Source of the DNA: an uncultured Rikenellaceae bacterium
GTDB lineage: Bacteria; Bacteroidota; Bacteroidia; Bacteroidales; VadinHA17
Length of the DNA stretch: 64,000 nt
Reading direction: 5' to 3'
Assembly: GCA_964507015.1 (NCBI GenBank)
Contig: CAZDOM010000002.1
Span: forward strand, 4,038-68,037
Below the pieces are notes generated by a model. It did not search any database and had not been told where the DNA came from. It worked only from the letters and a program-made list of their open reading frames with translations. Made by a program: the position numbers and the translations under genes. Shown here piece by piece: positions 2,472 to 12,761 of the stretch (the stretch's first letter is position 1; every line of letters starts with the position of its first letter).

Positions 2472-2559
<88 letters not shown>

Positions 2560-2642
2560 CTTTGTCCTCCGTAGCTTCAGTGGAGGAGGATTCCTCCGTA
2601 TCCCGCGAAGCGGGAGAAGGAGGGATTCTTTTATAAGCGCGA

Positions 2643-2650
2643 CAAAATTA
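2643..2650 (-). promoter_or_regulatory. Candidate -7 box (TAATTTTG) about 84 nt upstream of the tRNA-Ser 5' end
   Basis: The plus strand reads CAAAATTA, which is TAATTTTG on the minus strand. It lies 36 nt downstream of the ATPase stop codon. Confidence 0.3.
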
Positions 2651-2685
2651 GAAAATCGCACATTATGTACAAAATAATTACCAAC

Positions 2686-4971
2686 TTATTTCAATCCCTC
2701 GAAAACTTCTACCACCTGCCTGAAATTCTCCAGTGTCTCCTCATCAAAATCAGATATCTTTACTTCACCTGATTTAACATCTGTGAGAAATTTCGAGAAC
2801 AGGAAATTCCGTGGCATCTCCTTTTCCTTAATATAATCTGAGTTAGCAACTGTTATACCTTCCCGGGTTTTTAAAATATGGTTCTTGAAATCGAGTGTCG
2901 ATAACAGATCCTCAGCATTGTAAAATAACCCTGGTAAACTGATAATCATTTTACGTCCGCTGTTATCGGTTTTAAAAACTGTCTCCTTAAGATGATCATG
3001 CATATCGTTCTCCTCCTCGTTCTCAAAAAGAAGGACGGCAAAATCGAGACCCCAGCCCATCAGGATATTACACAGCAAAGGTATAGAAGAGACATTGGTC
3101 GAAGGAATAACACTTATCTTCCCTTTGAATCCGGTAAGTGTAAATATTGCATTTAAAATATAAAACGACCCGGTATCATTCACTATCAGGTTTATCTTTT
3201 TCTCTGAAAATCCCGAACTGGCTGCAGGATTGCCAATTATACTCTGCAGCGGAGAGAGAGTATCGGGCGATGCTGCAGACAGTTTTAAAGGATCAAGTAT
3301 ACGTGTTGCACTCCTCAGGTTGTCAATATCATCTCTCTGAACGGCAAGGACACGGTGAAGCTTGTTAATCTCCACAAGATGAGGAGAATGCGTGGTATAT
3401 ATTATCTGTATCTTGTCCTTAATATCTTCAAACACCTTGAGTACATCTTCCTGTGCTCTGGCATGCAGGCTCACTCCCGGTTCATCAACAAGCAGGATCA
3501 TCTTTTTATTTATGTTTGCGGCTGCCTTCAGTTCCATGTAAAAGGATAAGAACCACCTTACTCCCCTGCTTCTCTGCTTTGGATAAAGCCTCTCTCCCTC
3601 ATCCTTGATCCAGAATTCGAGATATGGTTTTCCGGCCTTTTCGCCGTATGATGCACTATAGTGATCGAGTTCAAACTGGATATTTATCTTGTTATTTCTC
3701 CCGATAGATTGCTGCCAGAAATCCTGGAAATTACATGTCAGGGCATAATTCAGATTCTCGATCTTTTGCTTGAGGATACGGCTTGAAGGCTGCTGGAAGA
3801 ATGAATAATCGAGCTGTGCAATTGACAGGAAATTCCTGGCTGCCTTGTAACCTTCAACCTGATCATTCCCTGTTACAATATCATCCATATCAATGCGGTT
3901 TGGCAAAAGGCTTCCAAAATCCTCAAAAAGCTCAAAAACAGGACTGTATTCAAAATATTTCCTTCCCAGTATCTCGCTGTTATATTGCGATTTATAAGAC
4001 AGAATAATTTCACTTACCCTCTTTTCAGCTTCCTCTTCAGATTTCCCCTCTATTATGTACCCCGACATTGCAATGTGCCTGTCGAGGTCAGATTTCATCT
4101 GGTTTCTTTCGTTCCTGGTTTTTCTGAAATCATTTAGAACAGTTCTCCACTCAATATCATCCTCATCATCAGCAGGACGCATCAGTAGTGTCATTTTCTG
4201 GTGCCTCTCCTCCAGCTTAACTGACAATTCCTCCATGTGGTTGTCGAGGGTAATAAATTTATCCATCAGTTTCTGCCATTTTTCACCAGCTTTTTTAATC
4301 TGTTGTTTGGCTGCCACTTCAGCAGAAAGTGCTTCCAGTTTTTGTTTAAGCTCTTTAAGCTGGTTCGTCAGATCTGTAATCTGTTTCCCCTCAGCCGAAT
4401 CATTTAAATCAGGTTTCTTCGTGAACAATCTGAACCTTTTCAGTTTTGTTTCAATAGATTGAAGTATTGACCTGGTCTCAGATTCCTCTTTGCCCATCTG
4501 TTCCAGTTCCTCTTCCATTCCGGTAATAATACTCATCTCCTGTTCCAGCTTAACTGTCACATCACCCAGATATAAGCGCCATGCATCTTCAAGAGAATCA
4601 AGATACTGACTTATCTCACCGCTTACAACAATGACCGATGAAAGATCAGCTATCCAAACTCTCATAAGTTCAATATGATCGAGTCCTGACAGAAGTTCTT
4701 TTAATTCGGTTCCCGGATTATCAGTTATATTCAGAAGCCATCCTTTGGGAATTGAGAACCTGCAACTCACCTCGGGTAAAGAAAGATCACTGCGAAGAAC
4801 ATCTTCCGAAATTATCCCGGAATAAAACACCTTCATGGCCTCCAGAATAGAGGTTTTCCCCGATTCATTCTGGCCAATAAGACAGGTTATATTATCCGGC
4901 GAGAGTGTTTGCCACCCGGTGTCAACAATTGAACGGAAGTTTTTGATCCTGAAAGCTGTAAGCTTCATCAT
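2686..4971 (-). CDS. ABC-type (OLD / AriA / GajA-like) ATPase with a ~200-aa coiled-coil insertion and a ~170-aa C-terminal domain of uncertain, possibly Toprim-like, nature
   Basis: N-terminus: FRIKNFRSI...CLIGQNESGKTSILEA (Walker A, K39). Residues ~140-330 are heptad-like and E/K/L/Q-rich. The second lobe has QRSRGVRWFLSF (signature-like), MILLVDEPGVSLH (Walker B/D-loop) and IIYTTHSPHL (H-loop). The C-terminal part reads KINLIVNDTGSFYILNAI...ISVIPSTN...LDFAVLLFENEEEND. Confidence 0.75.
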   Translation of the reverse strand: MMKLTAFRIKNFRSIVDTGWQTLSPDNITCLIGQNESGKTSILEAMKVFYSGIISEDVLRSDLSLPEVSCRFSIPKGWLLNITDNPGTELKELLSGLDHIELMRVWIADLSSVIVVSGEISQYLDSLEDAWRLYLGDVTVKLEQEMSIITGMEEELEQMGKEESETRSILQSIETKLKRFRLFTKKPDLNDSAEGKQITDLTNQLKELKQKLEALSAEVAAKQQIKKAGEKWQKLMDKFITLDNHMEELSVKLEERHQKMTLLMRPADDEDDIEWRTVLNDFRKTRNERNQMKSDLDRHIAMSGYIIEGKSEEEAEKRVSEIILSYKSQYNSEILGRKYFEYSPVFELFEDFGSLLPNRIDMDDIVTGNDQVEGYKAARNFLSIAQLDYSFFQQPSSRILKQKIENLNYALTCNFQDFWQQSIGRNNKINIQFELDHYSASYGEKAGKPYLEFWIKDEGERLYPKQRSRGVRWFLSFYMELKAAANINKKMILLVDEPGVSLHARAQEDVLKVFEDIKDKIQIIYTTHSPHLVEINKLHRVLAVQRDDIDNLRSATRILDPLKLSAASPDTLSPLQSIIGNPAASSGFSEKKINLIVNDTGSFYILNAIFTLTGFKGKISVIPSTNVSSIPLLCNILMGWGLDFAVLLFENEEENDMHDHLKETVFKTDNSGRKMIISLPGLFYNAEDLLSTLDFKNHILKTREGITVANSDYIKEKEMPRNFLFSKFLTDVKSGEVKISDFDEETLENFRQVVEVFEGLK

Positions 4972-4982
4972 GATTGGGAAAA

Positions 4983-5861
4983 TTATAATTGAAAACCCAG
5001 AACAAGAACATCATCAATCTGTTGCGTACTTCCCTTCCATTCATCAAAGGTATTCTCAAGTACCTTTTTCTGTTTTGTCATAGGAAGCTCGTTCATTGAT
5101 GATATTACTCTTTTCAGGTGTTTATGTTTGAATTTTTTATCTGTCATTTCACCAAACTGATCTGCAAATCCATCAGAAAACATGTAAAAGCTGTCCCCCG
5201 GTTTAAAATCAATTACCTGGTTTGTAAACGGATGCTCAACCAGTGGTGCAAGTCCGATTGTCATTTTATCAGCTTTAAACTCTGTCAGTTCGCCCTTTCT
5301 CATCATCAACAGGGGTCTGTTGGCGCCTGCAAACTGAAGCTGCCTGGTATTGATGTTTATAATACATAATCCAAGATCGATACTGTCTTTGGCTACTGAA
5401 CCTTTATCACTTTGATGAAGGGCTTTCATCACCTTCTCCCTCATGAGGTTAAGCACCCTGTTTGCTTTAGGCTCACACTTCGATTGCATTATCTCGTTAA
5501 GAAAACTGATACCCAGGATGCTGAGAAGTGCTCCCGGCACACCATGTCCGGTGCAATCACCTGCAGCAATACAAATGCATTGCCTGTTGCTGAATGCATA
5601 GTAGAAATCTCCGCTGACTATATCCCTGGGGAGAAAAAGAACAAAATAATTCTTTACCAGACCCTTCAGGTATGCAGGATCAGGCATGAGAGCTTTCTGG
5701 ATTATCCCTGCATATCTCAGACTCGCCATATGATCATCAATACCCTGGCTTTGTAACAGAGAAACTATATCAGGATTATGTTCTTCTTTGGCCGCCATCT
5801 CACACGACAAAATTCCTGCAAAAGCTAAAGATACATTAATTTGTATTGCATTACAACACAT
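4983..5861 (-). CDS. PP2C / SpoIIE-family serine/threonine protein phosphatase; stand-alone catalytic domain
   Basis: Motifs present: PRDIVSGDFYY, AAGDCTGHGVPGALLS, FYMFSDGFADQ and QIDDVLVLGF. The more likely start is the ATG at 5798 (MAAKEEHNPD...). The long ORF start at 5861 abuts the rlmD stop. Confidence 0.8.
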   Translation of the reverse strand: MCCNAIQINVSLAFAGILSCEMAAKEEHNPDIVSLLQSQGIDDHMASLRYAGIIQKALMPDPAYLKGLVKNYFVLFLPRDIVSGDFYYAFSNRQCICIAAGDCTGHGVPGALLSILGISFLNEIMQSKCEPKANRVLNLMREKVMKALHQSDKGSVAKDSIDLGLCIININTRQLQFAGANRPLLMMRKGELTEFKADKMTIGLAPLVEHPFTNQVIDFKPGDSFYMFSDGFADQFGEMTDKKFKHKHLKRVISSMNELPMTKQKKVLENTFDEWKGSTQQIDDVLVLGFQL

Positions 5862-7284: not shown

Positions 7285-8514
7285 TTAGTCTTTTAGGTTA
7301 AGGATGAATAAAAGACCCTCAATCATACATGGTAAAACTGCTTCATCATGATCCAGATCCGGGAAAATGATCTTTGAACATATTCCAGGGGATGTCCCTG
7401 CTTCAATCATCCCGTCATACATTGTTTCAGTTGAAGAAACATTCACTTGTGTATCACCTGAACCATGTACAAGAAGAAGTGGTTTTTGGGTGATCCAGGC
7501 TGACACACTATTGTTTGTAAGGGCATCCCGGACAGAAGAATAGTCGGATGATAAATAAAAACCTGCAAGGAATTCGCTGCTGAAGAGGTCAGCTATTGTA
7601 GTTGTCAGCTGACTGTTGATTTCATTTATTGAAAGGGTACCGTTATACAAAGAGCTAAGGTTTTCACAATAGGGGGTTTTCATAATACTGCATGCAGTAT
7701 TGGTAAACTGTTCATAATATGAATATGCATAGACAATATAACCAAGATATGCAGGTACAGGATAATCTTCCAGGTTATCCATTCCAAGGAAAAGGTTCAG
7801 GATATTATAAGGTCCTGCACCACAAACACTTCCTGCAAGATTAAAATCATCGGAATACTCAAGCTCGAGTGCCTTGTGAAGGTTAAGAGTTGCCCATCCT
7901 CCCTGTGAATATCCAAGAAGATAATATTCATTCTTTAATTCAATTCCCGGAAATTCATATTTACAGGATTCCTTAAGAGCATAAAGCATATCAACTATCG
8001 ATCTCACAGTAGGCTCAGCAACAAGATACGGGTGTGGAACCTGGCTCGATTCACCAAATCCTGGATAATCGGGTATCACCACCACGAAACCCATTGAGGC
8101 TAAATATTCAATAAGCTGGTATGAAGGATTTATGACATATTCTGAAGGAGCATACGCATTCACAGTATTTGTACCGTTCTGGAAACAGAGAACGGGATAC
8201 TCGCCGGGAGCAGCAGGAATACAAACCAGGCCGGAAGCCTCGATCGCCTCTCCCAAAACTTTTGTCCTGTATACAATTTTATACACATTTACATCATCCC
8301 CGATAAAAGGGATTATTTCACTCAGCTCCGAATATACTTCCAGACCTGCATCCAGCATATTGTTAATAGATGTTGTTGAATAAGTTACAACAAGTTCATC
8401 AGAAACAAAGTAATCATATACTGGTCCGCGATCATCTTTTCTACATGAGGTAACAGATACTATTACTGTAGAAATAAGTAATAGTAACCTTAAAATTTGT
8501 CTTTTAATATTCAT
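7285..8514 (-). CDS. Lipoprotein alpha/beta hydrolase (secretory lipase/esterase-like)
   Basis: The lipobox is VSVTSC. The nucleophile elbow is LLGYSQGGW. A C-terminal HGSGD...DH is consistent with a catalytic triad. Confidence 0.6.
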   Translation of the reverse strand: MNIKRQILRLLLLISTVIVSVTSCRKDDRGPVYDYFVSDELVVTYSTTSINNMLDAGLEVYSELSEIIPFIGDDVNVYKIVYRTKVLGEAIEASGLVCIPAAPGEYPVLCFQNGTNTVNAYAPSEYVINPSYQLIEYLASMGFVVVIPDYPGFGESSQVPHPYLVAEPTVRSIVDMLYALKESCKYEFPGIELKNEYYLLGYSQGGWATLNLHKALELEYSDDFNLAGSVCGAGPYNILNLFLGMDNLEDYPVPAYLGYIVYAYSYYEQFTNTACSIMKTPYCENLSSLYNGTLSINEINSQLTTTIADLFSSEFLAGFYLSSDYSSVRDALTNNSVSAWITQKPLLLVHGSGDTQVNVSSTETMYDGMIEAGTSPGICSKIIFPDLDHDEAVLPCMIEGLLFILNLKD

Positions 8515-8670
8515 TTTTTAATGTTATTATCACAATCGATTATCTATAGGTCAATTTTGTGTACATAAGAATATTACTCATGAACACAAAGGCAGCAAAT
8601 CAAAATTTTGAGGGATAAAGATAATTGTTATTGAGACATAATGTGCTTTCGAAGGCTGGTTTACTTTTTC

Positions 8671-8678
8671 TATATTTG
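8671..8678 (+). promoter_or_regulatory. Candidate -7 box TATATTTG for the ABC-F gene
   Basis: This is a perfect TAnnTTTG match 17 nt upstream of the ATG at 8696. Confidence 0.35.
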
Positions 8679-8695
8679 CGACAGTTTCTTTCAGC

Positions 8696-10639
8696 ATGGT
8701 ATCAGTACAGAATCTTTCAGTATCATTTGGCAGTTTTGACCTGCTGACAGGTATTTCATTTCTCATCAATGAACAGGATCGTATTGGGCTGGCAGGCAAA
8801 AATGGTTCAGGGAAATCGACACTCCTCAATGTAATCGCCGGTCTGAAGAGTCCAACATCAGGGTTTATTGATAAATCGGATGATATTACAATAGGATATC
8901 TTCCTCAACAGATGAAGATCAATGATTCAACAACAGTAATGAGCGAGGCAATAACCGCATTTAAGGAAATTACAGATATTTCAGAAGAAATAGAACAATG
9001 TGGTAAGGAGATTGCAACAAGGGATGATTATAATTCTGCAGAATACATGAAACTATGTGATCATCTGACAGTTATTGAGGAGAGGTTCAGAATACTGGGT
9101 GGTAACATGTATATAGCTGAAGCTGAAAAAACCCTTACAGGGCTCGGATTTGATAGAAATGATTTTGACCGGCCTACGGGGCATTTTAGTGGTGGCTGGC
9201 GCATGCGTATCGAACTGGCGAAGGTGCTTCTTAAAAAGCCATCCCTGTTTCTCCTTGATGAGCCAACAAATCATCTTGATATTGAATCTATTCAATGGCT
9301 GGAGAGTTTACTTGCAAATTATCCCGGGGCAGTGGTCCTTGTATCTCACGACAGGGTCTTTCTTGATACTGTGACAACCCGTACTATTGAGATTTCACTT
9401 GGTAAAATCTATGATTATAAAGTTCCGTGGTCGAAATTTGTTGAATTGAGAAAAGAGAGAAGAGAGCAGCAACTGGCTGCTTTCAGGAACCAGCAGAAGA
9501 TGATTGAGGATACCGAAAAATTCATAGAAAGGTTCCGCTATAAAGCCACTAAAGCTGTCCAGGTACAATCGAAAATCAAGCAACTGAACAAGGTTGAAAG
9601 GATTGAAGCAGACGAGGAGGATAACAGTACTATTAACCTCAGATTTCCCCCTGCACCACGGTCAGGGACAATAGTCATTGAAACCGACGGAGTCTCAAAA
9701 AGTTTTGGACAAAATCATGTCCTCGAAAGAATAGATTTCAAAATACACAGGGGTGAAAAGGTTGCATTTGTGGGGAGAAACGGGGAAGGTAAAACTACTT
9801 TTTCAAAGATCATAACTGGAGAGCTCGATTATACTGGATCAATGAAAAAAGGGCATAATGTAAAGATCGGATATTATGCACAAAACCAGGATGAGCTGCT
9901 CGATGAATCAAAAACCGTTTTCCAGACAATCGATGATGTGGCAAAAGGTGATATAAGAACAAAGATACGCGATATGCTTGGAGCATTCCTGTTCAGCGGG
10001 GATAATACAGATAAAAAAGTGAAAGTACTCTCGGGAGGTGAACGTTCAAGACTTGCCCTCATAAGACTTCTGCTTGAACCACATAATCTGCTGGTACTGG
10101 ATGAACCGACCAATCATCTCGATATGCGTTCAAAAGATATACTGAAACAGGCACTGATAAAATATGATGGCACATTAATTGTTGTATCCCACGACAGAGA
10201 TTTCCTGAACGGTATAACAGATAAAGTATATGAATTCAGGTATAAAAAGATCAGGGAAAACATAGGTGGTATTTACGATTTCCTGAGGAAGAAAAAAATA
10301 GAAAATCTATGGGAGATAGAAAAGAGAGAGCCACTGAGAAATGAGCAGTTGCCGGATGAGACTTCGTCAAATAAACAAAAATATCTTGAAAAAAAGGAAT
10401 ATGAGCGTAACCTGAGAAAACTCAGGAAAAGGCTTGAAGAGACAGAGGTCAAGATCGAAACCCTGGAGTCAGAATTAGCCTTACTGGATGAAATACTCAG
10501 CAGACCAGGGAAACCAGCTGAAGAGATGGAAAAGCTCTACATGAAATACCAGCAACTAAATGAACATCTAAACCATGAAATGACAAGTTGGGAACAATAT
10601 ACTCATGATGTGGAAGTTTTCTTAAAAAATAACAACTGA
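8696..10639 (+). CDS. ABC-F family ATPase: two ABC cassettes, no transmembrane domain, C-terminal coiled coil
   Basis: Two Walker A sites (GKNGSGKST, GRNGEGKTT), two signature motifs (FSGGWRMR, LSGGERSR) and two Walker B motifs (LLDEPTNHLD twice). No transmembrane segments are visible. Confidence 0.85.
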   Translation: MVSVQNLSVSFGSFDLLTGISFLINEQDRIGLAGKNGSGKSTLLNVIAGLKSPTSGFIDKSDDITIGYLPQQMKINDSTTVMSEAITAFKEITDISEEIEQCGKEIATRDDYNSAEYMKLCDHLTVIEERFRILGGNMYIAEAEKTLTGLGFDRNDFDRPTGHFSGGWRMRIELAKVLLKKPSLFLLDEPTNHLDIESIQWLESLLANYPGAVVLVSHDRVFLDTVTTRTIEISLGKIYDYKVPWSKFVELRKERREQQLAAFRNQQKMIEDTEKFIERFRYKATKAVQVQSKIKQLNKVERIEADEEDNSTINLRFPPAPRSGTIVIETDGVSKSFGQNHVLERIDFKIHRGEKVAFVGRNGEGKTTFSKIITGELDYTGSMKKGHNVKIGYYAQNQDELLDESKTVFQTIDDVAKGDIRTKIRDMLGAFLFSGDNTDKKVKVLSGGERSRLALIRLLLEPHNLLVLDEPTNHLDMRSKDILKQALIKYDGTLIVVSHDRDFLNGITDKVYEFRYKKIRENIGGIYDFLRKKKIENLWEIEKREPLRNEQLPDETSSNKQKYLEKKEYERNLRKLRKRLEETEVKIETLESELALLDEILSRPGKPAEEMEKLYMKYQQLNEHLNHEMTSWEQYTHDVEVFLKNNN

Positions 10640-10641
10640 AA

Positions 10642-11418
10642 ATGGAATCCCAGAAAATGTTAAAAAAATACCGGGTACATGTATATGAGACCAGCCCGGA
10701 GGGTAGGCTGAATCTATGGTCCCTTTTCAATTACATGCAGGATATTGCTTCTGAACATGCAGTAAAACTGGGTTTCGGAAGGGATGACCTCATGAAGAGA
10801 AACCAATTCTGGGTTCTCTCCAGAATGTATGCAGTAATTCATGACCTGCCTTACTGGAATAAAGAAATTGTTGTGACAACATGGCCGCATGGTACAGAAA
10901 AGCTTTTTGCATTAAGGAATTATGAAATTAAGTACCCTGATGGCAAGGAGATTGCATCAGCTTCCTCATCATGGCTTATCATCGATCGCACCACAAAAAA
11001 AATACAGAGGCCGGGCGTACTTCTCTCTCAATATAACTCTGTCAATCAATCAATAAAATCAGCTGCCAGGGAAGCTGAAAAAATTCCGGAAGCCTCCCCT
11101 GACGGACAAAATTCACTAAGATCAAAAATAAAAGTAAGCGACCTCGATATTAACCTGCATACGAACAATGTCAATTATATTAAATGGGTATGCGATACCT
11201 ATGATCTTGATTTTATACTGACCCATTCCCCATGTTCTGCAGAAATAAATTATCTTGCAGAATCGATGTACGATGAAGAGGTATTCATAAGAACATCAGT
11301 GGAAAAGGAGAAGACTATTTTTTTCAATCATTCAGTTATTCGTACAAATGATGATAGGGAGCTATGCAGGATAAGAATAGAATGGAAAAAAGAAAGGATA
11401 AAGAAATTCTATCATTAA
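10642..11418 (+). CDS. Acyl-ACP thioesterase
   Basis: The layout is a double hot-dog fold. The N-terminus RVHVYETSPEGRLNLWSLFNYMQDIASEHA...FWVLSRM is typical of the Acyl-ACP_TE family. Confidence 0.7.
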   Translation: MESQKMLKKYRVHVYETSPEGRLNLWSLFNYMQDIASEHAVKLGFGRDDLMKRNQFWVLSRMYAVIHDLPYWNKEIVVTTWPHGTEKLFALRNYEIKYPDGKEIASASSSWLIIDRTTKKIQRPGVLLSQYNSVNQSIKSAAREAEKIPEASPDGQNSLRSKIKVSDLDINLHTNNVNYIKWVCDTYDLDFILTHSPCSAEINYLAESMYDEEVFIRTSVEKEKTIFFNHSVIRTNDDRELCRIRIEWKKERIKKFYH

Positions 11419-12761
11419 TGAACAATAAAAGACTATATATCAAGGATATAATACGTCTGATAACAGTCCTTGTAATAATACCTGTACTGATATCCTCCTG
11501 CAGGACAACACGTGTCGCTGTTGACTCAAAGGATCTTTCATACCTGTATAATCCAACCAGGAACTCGCTGAATCCCCTTTATAATATAAGAAATGAATCT
11601 GACCATGAATCAATCCTGTCGATAAAGTTCTTTACAAGTGAATTATATTTCTCAGAAGCCAATTCACAGGGAGTGCCTCTTGCCTCTATTCTTGTCACAG
11701 CCAAGCTTTTCAATACTGAACAGGGAAGGGTTCTTGCAGATACTTCAGCATATAACCTTGCTATATACAAGGAAAACAGCCCTCCTGAACATATTTATCA
11801 GATTCCGCTTAAGGTAGATCCCGGAAGAGAATACCTGGTGGAAGTAAAGATACTCGACAAAGTCAGAATACAGGTAGTTCATGCTTTCCTGACATTCAAC
11901 ACATTGTCGGATTACAACAGATATAATTTCAGGGCACAGGGACACTTCAACAAAAATGAAATATTCAAACCTATCCTGAAGGCTGATGAATATGTTAATC
12001 TGATCTACCTGCGGGGTAATATCGATTCATTATATATCTCCTATTTTAAGCCTTACAGCGAAATTCCTTATCCGCCGTCATTGCTGCTTCCTGAAAAAAC
12101 CCTTGACTATCCGCCTGATACCATTATTTCACTCCCATATTCTGACACTATACCACTTATGCTTCCAAGGAAAGGTATTTATTTTTTTTCTACAGAAAGA
12201 GAGGTAAAGGAGGGATTTACATTTTTAAATCTGGGAGAGGAATTTCCAACATTAACAACTCTGGCTGTGATGATCGAGCCCCTGGCATATCTTGCCAGCG
12301 AATCTGAAATGAAAACCATGCGTGATGCTGTCAGATCTAAACTGGCTCTTGATGAATTCTGGATAGGCTGCGGTGGTAATATTGAAAGAGCCCGTGAACT
12401 GATACGTATATATTATACACGTGTTTATTACGCCAATCACTACTTCACATCCTTTACTGAAGGATGGCGAACTGACAGAGGAATGATATACATTATTTAC
12501 GGACCGCCTGATAAAGTATACAAATCCTCAGATGGTGAGAGCTGGGGTTATCTTAAACCTGTAATTAAATCATCGTGGGGACCAAGGTACAGGGTAAAAG
12601 ATGAATACCTGTTTTTTACATTCAGGAAAAGGAATAATGTCTTTTCTGATAACGATTTTTATCTAAGCCGGAGTGAAACACTGGTAACTCTGTGGGAACA
12701 AGCAATCGCCAGCTGGAAAAAAGGCATAGTTTTCAGGCTTGATAACCCGGAGGAATATTAA
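11418..12761 (+). CDS. GWxTD domain-containing lipoprotein
   Basis: The GWxTD motif is present (TEGWRTDRGMIYIIYGPPD). The lipobox is LISSC. The ATG at 11418 overlaps the upstream stop codon (TAATG). The track ORF start at 11364 is an upstream in-frame extension. Confidence 0.75.
   Translation: MNNKRLYIKDIIRLITVLVIIPVLISSCRTTRVAVDSKDLSYLYNPTRNSLNPLYNIRNESDHESILSIKFFTSELYFSEANSQGVPLASILVTAKLFNTEQGRVLADTSAYNLAIYKENSPPEHIYQIPLKVDPGREYLVEVKILDKVRIQVVHAFLTFNTLSDYNRYNFRAQGHFNKNEIFKPILKADEYVNLIYLRGNIDSLYISYFKPYSEIPYPPSLLLPEKTLDYPPDTIISLPYSDTIPLMLPRKGIYFFSTEREVKEGFTFLNLGEEFPTLTTLAVMIEPLAYLASESEMKTMRDAVRSKLALDEFWIGCGGNIERARELIRIYYTRVYYANHYFTSFTEGWRTDRGMIYIIYGPPDKVYKSSDGESWGYLKPVIKSSWGPRYRVKDEYLFFTFRKRNNVFSDNDFYLSRSETLVTLWEQAIASWKKGIVFRLDNPEEY

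Follow-up and report, generated by a model that had tools for sequence, protein, structure and literature searches.

This report concerns a two-gene locus in a 64-kb stretch of contig CAZDOM010000002.1 from an uncultured Rikenellaceae bacterium (the window, by which we mean the whole stretch analysed). A stand-alone SpoIIE/PP2C Ser/Thr phosphatase gene and, directly behind it, an ABC ATPase gene of the OLD family lie on the minus strand between rlmD and a tRNA-Ser gene (Table 1). The sequence of the ATPase begins MMKLTAFRIKNFRSI in the translation of its open reading frame (ORF). The protein combines an intact head, in which all motifs for ATP hydrolysis are kept, with a C-terminal Toprim domain that retains its fold and has lost all three ligands of metal A.

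Table 1. Coordinates of the two-gene module and its flank in the window, and of additional phosphatase genes in related loci (each numbered on its own sequence). Ts, Thermus scotoductus; pLDDT, predicted local distance difference test.
Feature	Position (nt)	Strand	Basis or remark
OLD-family ABC ATPase gene (long form, decayed Toprim site), 761 aa	2686..4971	minus	ORF; Pfam AAA_15 3e-25; profile vs 6P74 E=1e-19; AlphaFold2 pLDDT 90.4
ATPase head N-lobe, residues 1-117, Walker A included	4621..4971	minus	motif columns; 48-locus identity 0.83
Walker A GQNESGKT, residues 33-40	4852-4875	minus	motif in translation
Helical coiled-coil-like insert, residues 118-330	3982..4620	minus	AlphaFold2 helices; absent in short forms
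ATPase head C-lobe, residues 331-560 (signature-like QRSRG, Walker B DE, H-loop)	3292..3981	minus	motifs; 48-locus identity 0.87
C-terminal OLD-type Toprim region and helical tail, residues 561-761	2689..3291	minus	alignment to Ts OLD; fold search with the C-terminal domain alone
Replaced metal-A ligands N598; F649/E650/N651 (E687/D688 kept)	3178-3180; 3019-3027	minus	alignment to Ts OLD
Stand-alone SpoIIE/PP2C Ser/Thr phosphatase gene, 271 aa	4983..5798	minus	Pfam SpoIIE 5e-20; ends 11 nt before ATPase start
tRNA-Ser(GCT), downstream of ATPase	2472..2559	minus	local context of window clade, not part of the module
Terminator-like hairpin after tRNA-Ser	2439-2458	minus	
Sensor-type SpoIIE phosphatase genes (sister subclade)	L107 2-3190; L098 1-3189		Reg_prop/Y_Y_Y type
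TPR-type SpoIIE phosphatase genes (sister subclade)	L100 6699-9071; L113 4810-7158	opposite	

In addition to Walker A, the ATPase carries a signature-like QRSRGVRW at residues 466-473, a Walker B LLVDEPG at 493-499 and an H-loop YTTHSP at 525-530. Among 100 family members S468, D496, E497, H503 and H528 are invariant, and G33-K39 is conserved to at least 90%. A full-length AlphaFold2 model built from the family alignment has a mean pLDDT of 90.4 and a predicted TM-score (pTM) of 0.75. It places a beta-alpha-beta-alpha-beta-alpha unit at residues 593-678 and helices at 118-181, 193-263, 273-307 and 312-326 of the insert, the two longest being of approximately 64 and 71 residues. The 213-residue insert, 55% of which is E, K, L, Q, R or D, occupies the position of the OLD dimerisation domain and of the Rad50/SMC coiled coil. 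It contains no Cys, and neither a Rad50-type CxxC zinc hook nor a hinge domain is present in its sequence or model; it is not the long antiparallel coiled coil ending in a hook or hinge that marks Rad50 and SMC proteins. An exhaustive search returned 4,849 relatives, 418 of them at E<=1e-30, which split into a long form of approximately 760-785 aa and a short form of approximately 570-640 aa without the insert. Both align to about residue 755, and the insert region measures 220-237 residues in the long forms vs 20-97 in the short ones.

The ATPase belongs to the OLD family, its C-terminal domain included. Pfam AAA_15 and the PADLOC AriA model, which was the top model match at 3.7e-28, both cover only the head (residues 2-533), and the PADLOC Old model covers the head as well. 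A profile of the 100-member family matched the full-length OLD protein of Thermus scotoductus (Ts OLD, 6P74) in an alignment that spans the Toprim motifs. In a Foldseek search with the full ATPase model 6P74 likewise came first, followed by GajA, PtuA and SMC/Rad50 heads, and RecN heads were also among the matches. The C-terminal 224 residues alone gave no Pfam or PADLOC match even at E<=10, a sequence profile of the C-terminal domain alone found nothing meaningful in the PDB at the same limit, and PF20469 matched relatives only below threshold. Residues 536-761 modelled alone by AlphaFold2 (pLDDT 80.5) had OLD Toprim-containing structures as the top six PDB matches, with the full-length 6P74 first (2.4e-5) and GajA seventh. 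The same model also matched 6NK8, 6NJX, 6NJW and 6NJV, which are isolated class 2 OLD C-terminal regions, with TM-scores of 0.40-0.51. Since the profile of the C-terminal domain alone finds nothing, the Toprim assignment depends on two results, the alignment of the full-length profile and the fold search with the single domain. Of the features that define OLD proteins, the N-terminal ABC ATPase with a helical insert and the C-terminal Toprim fold are thus present, and the conserved two-metal nuclease site is absent.

These results can be set against a first-pass annotation of the window, which had described an OLD-, AriA- or GajA-style ATPase with a Rad50-like coiled-coil insertion and an effector-like C-terminal domain. 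The 761-aa ORF and its split head were confirmed, with Walker A, signature, Walker B and H-loop where that annotation had placed them, and the relationship of the head to OLD, AriA and GajA was borne out by the profile and fold matches above. The helical insert is real and starts near residue 118 in the AlphaFold2 model rather than near 140, the earlier range having been approximately 140-330, and it has neither a Rad50-type CxxC hook nor any Cys. A further domain does follow the head, but spans approximately 200 residues (561-761) and not 170. This effector-like domain is an OLD-type Toprim region that has lost its metal-A ligands.

The nuclease site of Ts OLD holds two metals, A with E377, D431 and D433 as its ligands and B with D381, S478 and E480 (PMC7049728). 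In the profile alignment E377 corresponds to N598, D381 to S602 and D431/E432/D433 to F649/E650/N651, and the E377 and DxD columns fall in one ungapped motif context. The E377 column holds Glu in all 81 distant Toprim-intact relatives vs Asn in seven of seven members compared from the clade to which the window locus belongs (the window clade), and the D431 column holds Asp in the same 81 vs Phe in the window clade. Among 174 loci, the long forms show approximately 30 distinct residue combinations at the metal-A columns, including FEN, FDN, FGN, GNH, CNT, TDN, MDN, LGE, MGI and SDN, while E687/D688, D599 and all ATPase motifs stay fixed. As read from the aligned columns, such varied replacement is the pattern of relaxed selection and not that of one alternative active site.

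The phosphatase partner consists of the bare catalytic domain and carries no sensor domain. Among solved structures the nearest is SiaA-PP2C (6K4E, E=1.5e-30), and PADLOC returned no match for the partner. As in a SiaABC-like system, the metal-binding aspartates are intact: the motifs GDFY, DCTGHG, SDG..DQ and DDV are invariant wherever sequence is present among 144 SpoIIE-model matches. The longest possible ORF has 292 aa and starts at 5861, abutting the rlmD stop codon; relatives start at the equivalent of Met22 (nt 5798), so that approximately 63 nt separate the gene from rlmD.

The SpoIIE phosphatase is obligately linked to the long ATPase with a decayed site, and the two form a two-gene module. 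The comparison took in every locus for which 900 bp or more of upstream sequence was available; some loci lie on identical or near-identical contigs, so that the counts are not all independent. A SpoIIE gene stands directly upstream in all long forms that have lost the metal-A ligands (121/121), in two of the four long forms with metal A intact (L096 and L133, and not L094 or L102) and in none of 22 short forms, 19 of them with metal A intact and three with it lost by a strict criterion. The median gap between the two genes is 11 nt. Three members of approximately 40% identity lie in unrelated settings, namely beside a Zn-peptidase and RlmN (L084), PKD and AraC genes (L085) and G6PD (L093), and each keeps a SpoIIE gene of 270-280 aa directly upstream, the two genes overlapping by 4 nt at one extreme and lying 41 nt apart at the other. 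For the Toprim-intact long forms P0134, P0137 and P0138 the contigs are too short to be fully informative on upstream genes. The metagenomic loci L096 and L102 have the same flanks and a Toprim-intact long ATPase (EDT/DDD), with a SpoIIE gene in the former and a 180-nt gap in the latter, which looks like a snapshot of the gain or loss of the partner. The order of events appears to have been gain of the insert, then acquisition of the phosphatase (with E599D and A602T/S), then repeated loss of metal-A ligands. When rlmD and ABCF distances were regressed out, the partial correlation of PP2C divergence was 0.61 with the ATPase C-terminal domain, 0.45 with the coil and 0.23-0.25 with the head lobes; that the phosphatase tracks the C-terminal domain best is suggestive only.

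In its lineage the ATPase is inherited vertically at a housekeeping rate. The best 120 protein matches are all full length (approximately 760 aa) and 73-88% identical, and a scan of one genome per species found at least 80 loci, all full length, in metagenome-assembled genomes of uncultured Bacteroidales (63-87% identity). SpoIIE is directly upstream in 82 of 82 window-clade loci, and rlmD lies upstream wherever the sequence allows, except in L078 and L079, which still have SpoIIE. For 48 species loci in which four genes were complete, the mean pairwise distance of the ATPase equals that of rlmD (both 0.289; ABCF, 0.245), and ATPase distances correlate with rlmD distances at r=0.85 vs 0.89 for rlmD and ABCF. 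By domain, the coiled coil has a mean pairwise identity of 0.51 at these loci and the decayed Toprim one of 0.67, next to the head lobes listed in Table 1; the Toprim is still under constraint, because it is held at 67%. The family as a whole is confined to some Bacteroidota lineages and is not universal, and its neighbours in related loci are housekeeping genes, not defence islands.

The hypothesis of a mobile element was rejected. No full-length relative of the ATPase was found in phages, which gave a single weak partial match, or in plasmids, which carry just short-form OLD-like genes of at most 29% identity. The phage match lies at 755-1219 of MT835758.1, an unannotated human-gut 'Bacteriophage sp.' contig, and has 31% identity to residues 411-580, that is, to the head C-lobe only.

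The first-pass annotation had regarded the gene as accessory, with no nuclease, methylase, integrase or other defence gene beside it. It does lack a neighbouring nuclease, methylase or integrase, but the upstream PP2C, which had been taken as unrelated, is the conserved partner. The gene is not accessory: essentially every one of the 82 related loci has it behind rlmD-SpoIIE, and its divergence parallels that of the housekeeping neighbours. Given the rlmD-like divergence, the loss of metal A and the constant PP2C partner, the picture of an accessory, partnerless defence gene fails. Within the clade we found the conserved syntenic position that the same annotation had named as evidence against itself, and the relationship of the head to OLD, AriA and GajA was nonetheless upheld.

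Signalling genes adjoin the module in two sister subclades. In the KD[TGS]/FGN subclade a gene for a SiaC-family phosphoprotein (PF09345, E=6e-31) lies downstream in all five loci with enough sequence. At three of these loci (L098, L103 and L107) a sensor phosphatase gene, likewise a match to the SpoIIE model, shares 4 nt with the small SpoIIE gene; Pfam identifies the one in L107 as Reg_prop/Y_Y_Y-SpoIIE. In the EDS/GNH subclade a SpoIIE-model gene of approximately 790 aa adjoins the module, and Pfam gives TPR-SpoIIE for the copy in L100. The window holds no SpoIIE gene other than the partner, and no SiaC-like gene was found in the window or in the flanks of window-clade loci.

Because inheritance is housekeeping-like, the metal site is lost and the phosphatase pairing is constant, the ATPase is more likely to act in signalling than to be a mobile defence gene. 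To a more specific proposal, drawn from sequences and models, we would give an even chance: an OLD-family ATPase may have been exapted to regulate or scaffold the Ser/Thr phosphatase, and the pair would form a two-gene signalling module and not a DNA-cutting anti-phage enzyme. The OLD dimerisation insert has grown into a helical arm of approximately 210 residues, and in such a module ATP-driven engagement of the heads in an ATPase dimer would sense a ligand, possibly nucleic acid or protein. The inactivated Toprim/C-terminal domain would dock and control the bare PP2C, which would dephosphorylate a phosphoprotein of the partner-switch type (SiaC/STAS-like) and so produce a regulatory output. 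Tentatively, we also suggest that the locus represents an undescribed OLD class, widespread in uncultured Bacteroidales/Bacteroidota, in which Toprim serves as a non-catalytic docking or regulatory domain and the coiled-coil-armed ABC ATPase as the input of SiaA-like PP2C partner-switching.

Several observations weigh against a signalling module. All bacterial members of the OLD family that have been characterised by experiment act in phage defence (PMC12796447; OLD review). The linkage to SiaC is seen in just one sister subclade and could be mere synteny, and no SiaC, STAS or kinase gene turned up in the window, where no search was aimed at a kinase. The mirror-tree signal is weak, since the slowly evolving head domains carry little variance. 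As to the nuclease site, equivalents of metal-B residues other than D381 (S602) could not be mapped, those of S478/E480 and also of R487 in Ts OLD not being recoverable by alignment; a conserved acidic cluster in the window clade (E/D652, E654, D599, E687 and D688) could form a remodelled metal site; and the metal-A triple mutant of Ts OLD still nicks plasmid DNA (PMC7049728). Residual or remodelled catalysis in the window protein is nevertheless unlikely.

The last of these points lead to the reading that the protein is a normal, still active class 1 OLD nuclease, its catalytic residues having been misaligned or being substituted by nearby acidic ones. It would account for the retained E687/D688 and D599 and for the acidic run E650-E654 in the window clade, and it can appeal to the nicking by Ts OLD metal-A mutants (PMC7049728) and to a column mapping that depends on the full-length alignment, a profile of the C-terminal domain alone finding no Toprim. 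We consider it very improbable, however: the E377 and DxD columns stand in a single ungapped context and are conserved in 81 of 81 Toprim-intact relatives, the first Asp of DxD has become a Phe that is incapable of binding metal, the replacements differ by subclade (F, G, C, T, M, L, S, N, E) in the manner of relaxed selection, and class 1 is defined as stand-alone with conserved catalytic residues (PMC7049728; PMC12796447).

If the nuclease is gone, the locus might still be a fixed, domesticated anti-phage system of the abortive-infection type, its ATPase responding to a signal from the phage in the manner of AriA, PtuA and OLD, with the PP2C in place of Toprim as effector or switch. Defence ATPases (AriA, Old, PtuA and GajA) account for all of the best matches in PADLOC and the PDB, ABC ATPases in defence combine with a wide variety of effectors (bioRxiv 10.1101/2024.01.29.577857), effector-swap logic fits loss of the nuclease after gain of a new partner, and the phosphatase is present or absent between the otherwise identical L096 and L102. 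Vertical inheritance at a housekeeping-like rate in at least 80 species, the absence of phage or plasmid copies, housekeeping neighbours without defence islands and a PP2C without PADLOC match make this unlikely. Nor do we favour a chromosome- or DNA-maintenance ATPase like Cran1, RecN or Rad50, phospho-regulated by a PP2C that acts on the ATPase instead of being controlled by it. In Foldseek the head does match those of SMC, Rad50 and RecN in addition to OLD, the coiled-coil arm is at the Rad50/SMC position and the gene is conserved at a housekeeping rate. The arm is short for such a role, with helices of only approximately 64 and 71 residues and no hook or hinge, the family is limited to some Bacteroidota lineages, and the SiaC and sensor-phosphatase neighbours suggest signalling, so that a maintenance function, too, is improbable.

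Labels of the PADLOC, DefenseFinder or Pfam style, such as OLD, AriA or "predicted ATP-dependent endonuclease", are probably wrong for hundreds of Bacteroidota genomes. The locus represents a bacterial lineage in which an OLD scaffold is fixed by vertical descent and coupled to a phosphatase, its nuclease site having been lost along many independent routes. It invites the question how cellular regulation comes to recruit an immune ATPase, and offers a candidate answer to how a sensor-less, bare PP2C obtains its input. If the signalling reading is correct, no earlier example would exist of Ser/Thr phospho-signalling having taken over an immune-type ABC ATPase by exaptation, and the evolutionary intermediates would be preserved from short active through long active and PP2C-linked active to PP2C-linked decayed forms.

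The flanks of the module are less constant than its core. A gene for a LIP-family lipase/alpha-beta hydrolase heads the operon (window 7285-8514) and is present or absent among window-clade species, being missing in, for example, L002, L003, L011, L016 and L017, with rlmD-SpoIIE-ATPase constant across loci L002-L082. Downstream, the tRNA that the first-pass annotation had placed directly behind the ATPase gene is indeed there, and it recurs in 55 of the 59 window-clade loci with sufficient downstream sequence. No downstream tRNA gene was seen in the sister-subclade neighbourhoods looked at in detail, where no ARAGORN scan was made. A functional link to tRNA-Ser, by analogy with the tRNA-cleaving AriB and PtuAB, was rejected on the grounds that the adjacency is kept in the window clade and not seen in those sister-subclade neighbourhoods.

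The spacer between the ATPase stop codon and the tRNA (2560-2685, minus strand) folds at -41.4 kcal/mol (z=-3.0; 0/200 shuffles were as stable) and contains repeated GGAGGA/CCUCC tracts flanking a CCCGC-UUCG-GCGGG hairpin. This spacer may serve in processing or attenuation at the junction of mRNA and tRNA. In L001 (same contig as L018) the tRNA lies approximately 700 nt from the ATPase instead of the usual distance of approximately 130 nt, and a HEPN plus nucleotidyltransferase (MNT) toxin-antitoxin-like pair and CHAT-domain fragments are found beyond it at 11343-12007; the tRNA side is the variable, insertion-prone side of the locus. In L084, of the tier of approximately 40% identity, a tyrosine recombinase gene (Phage_integrase, 298 aa; 8324-9220) converges on and overlaps the 3' end of the ATPase gene.

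The current OLD classification comprises Classes 1-4, an archaeal Cran1 clade and the uncharacterised clades U1-U11 (PMC12796447). The first-pass annotation had not assigned the gene to a named system, and none fits. Class 1 OLD (phage P2 Old; Ts OLD 6P74) is the best profile and fold match and shares the layout, in which a single chain carries an ABC head, a helical insert where the dimerisation domain sits and a C-terminal Toprim. The window protein differs in having N598/F649/N651 where Ts OLD has E377/D431/D433, an insert of approximately 210 residues in place of a compact dimerisation domain, and a QRSxG that is conserved in its family, the signature-like motif being degenerate in class 1 (PMC7049728). 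Class 1 genes are also stand-alone and sporadic, in variable neighbourhoods, whereas the decayed-site long forms have an obligate PP2C partner directly upstream in every comparable locus, and synteny is fixed across at least 80 species with vertical inheritance. Class 2 and Gabija share the AAA_15-type head, and GajA is among the top fold matches, but GajA requires a UvrD-like helicase gene (GajB) downstream; here the tRNA-Ser gene is followed by an ICMT-family ORF on the opposite strand, and no annotated related locus has a helicase neighbour. Class 3, the retron effectors, is defined by an adjacent reverse transcriptase and msr/msd RNA. The neighbours here are SpoIIE, rlmD and lipase genes, the only non-coding RNA found in the window by Rfam at gathering threshold was tRNA, and the NCBIfam retron Eco8 effector model scored 39.9 bits vs a cutoff of 250. 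PARIS (class 4) has a head of the AAA_15 type as well; its ATPase AriA and its DUF4435 Toprim AriB are separate adjacent genes, and here a single ORF encodes both domains, the Toprim site having decayed. With Rad50, SMC and RecN the protein has in common an ABC head and a helical arm emerging between the two lobes, but its arm is far shorter, without Cys, zinc hook or hinge, and it has a Toprim-derived C-terminal domain and no Mre11/SbcD-like partner.

On the phosphatase side, the nearest system is SiaABC of Pseudomonas aeruginosa, whose SiaA PP2C is closest to the partner and whose SiaC has family members beside the module in one sister subclade. SiaA has membrane and HAMP input domains of its own, whereas the window PP2C is bare; SiaABCD as described in PMC7647112 includes no ABC ATPase; and no SiaC, SiaB kinase or SiaD cyclase gene turned up in the window, although no search was aimed at the kinase. 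No description of such a pair turned up in literature searches that combined AAA_15 and SpoIIE, PP2C and OLD/Toprim, or PP2C, ABC ATPase and partner-switching, a prior mention in the 2020 ABC-ATPase classification (Krishnan et al.) being possible, and the OLD review mentions no phosphatase-linked, inactive, coiled-coil or Bacteroidota form. The Walker A string of the window family is not found in the dataset of the Cran1 paper (PMC12796447). Cran1 (Sulfolobales OLD clade U11; 2025) is the only known exception to an anti-phage role among characterised OLD proteins. It is archaeal and retains a potent nickase, with no phosphatase partner or long coiled coil reported. Like the window family it is vertically conserved within one order, apparently non-defensive, and dependent more on its ATPase than on its nuclease (PMC12796447), and if the signalling reading holds, the module described here would be its first bacterial counterpart.

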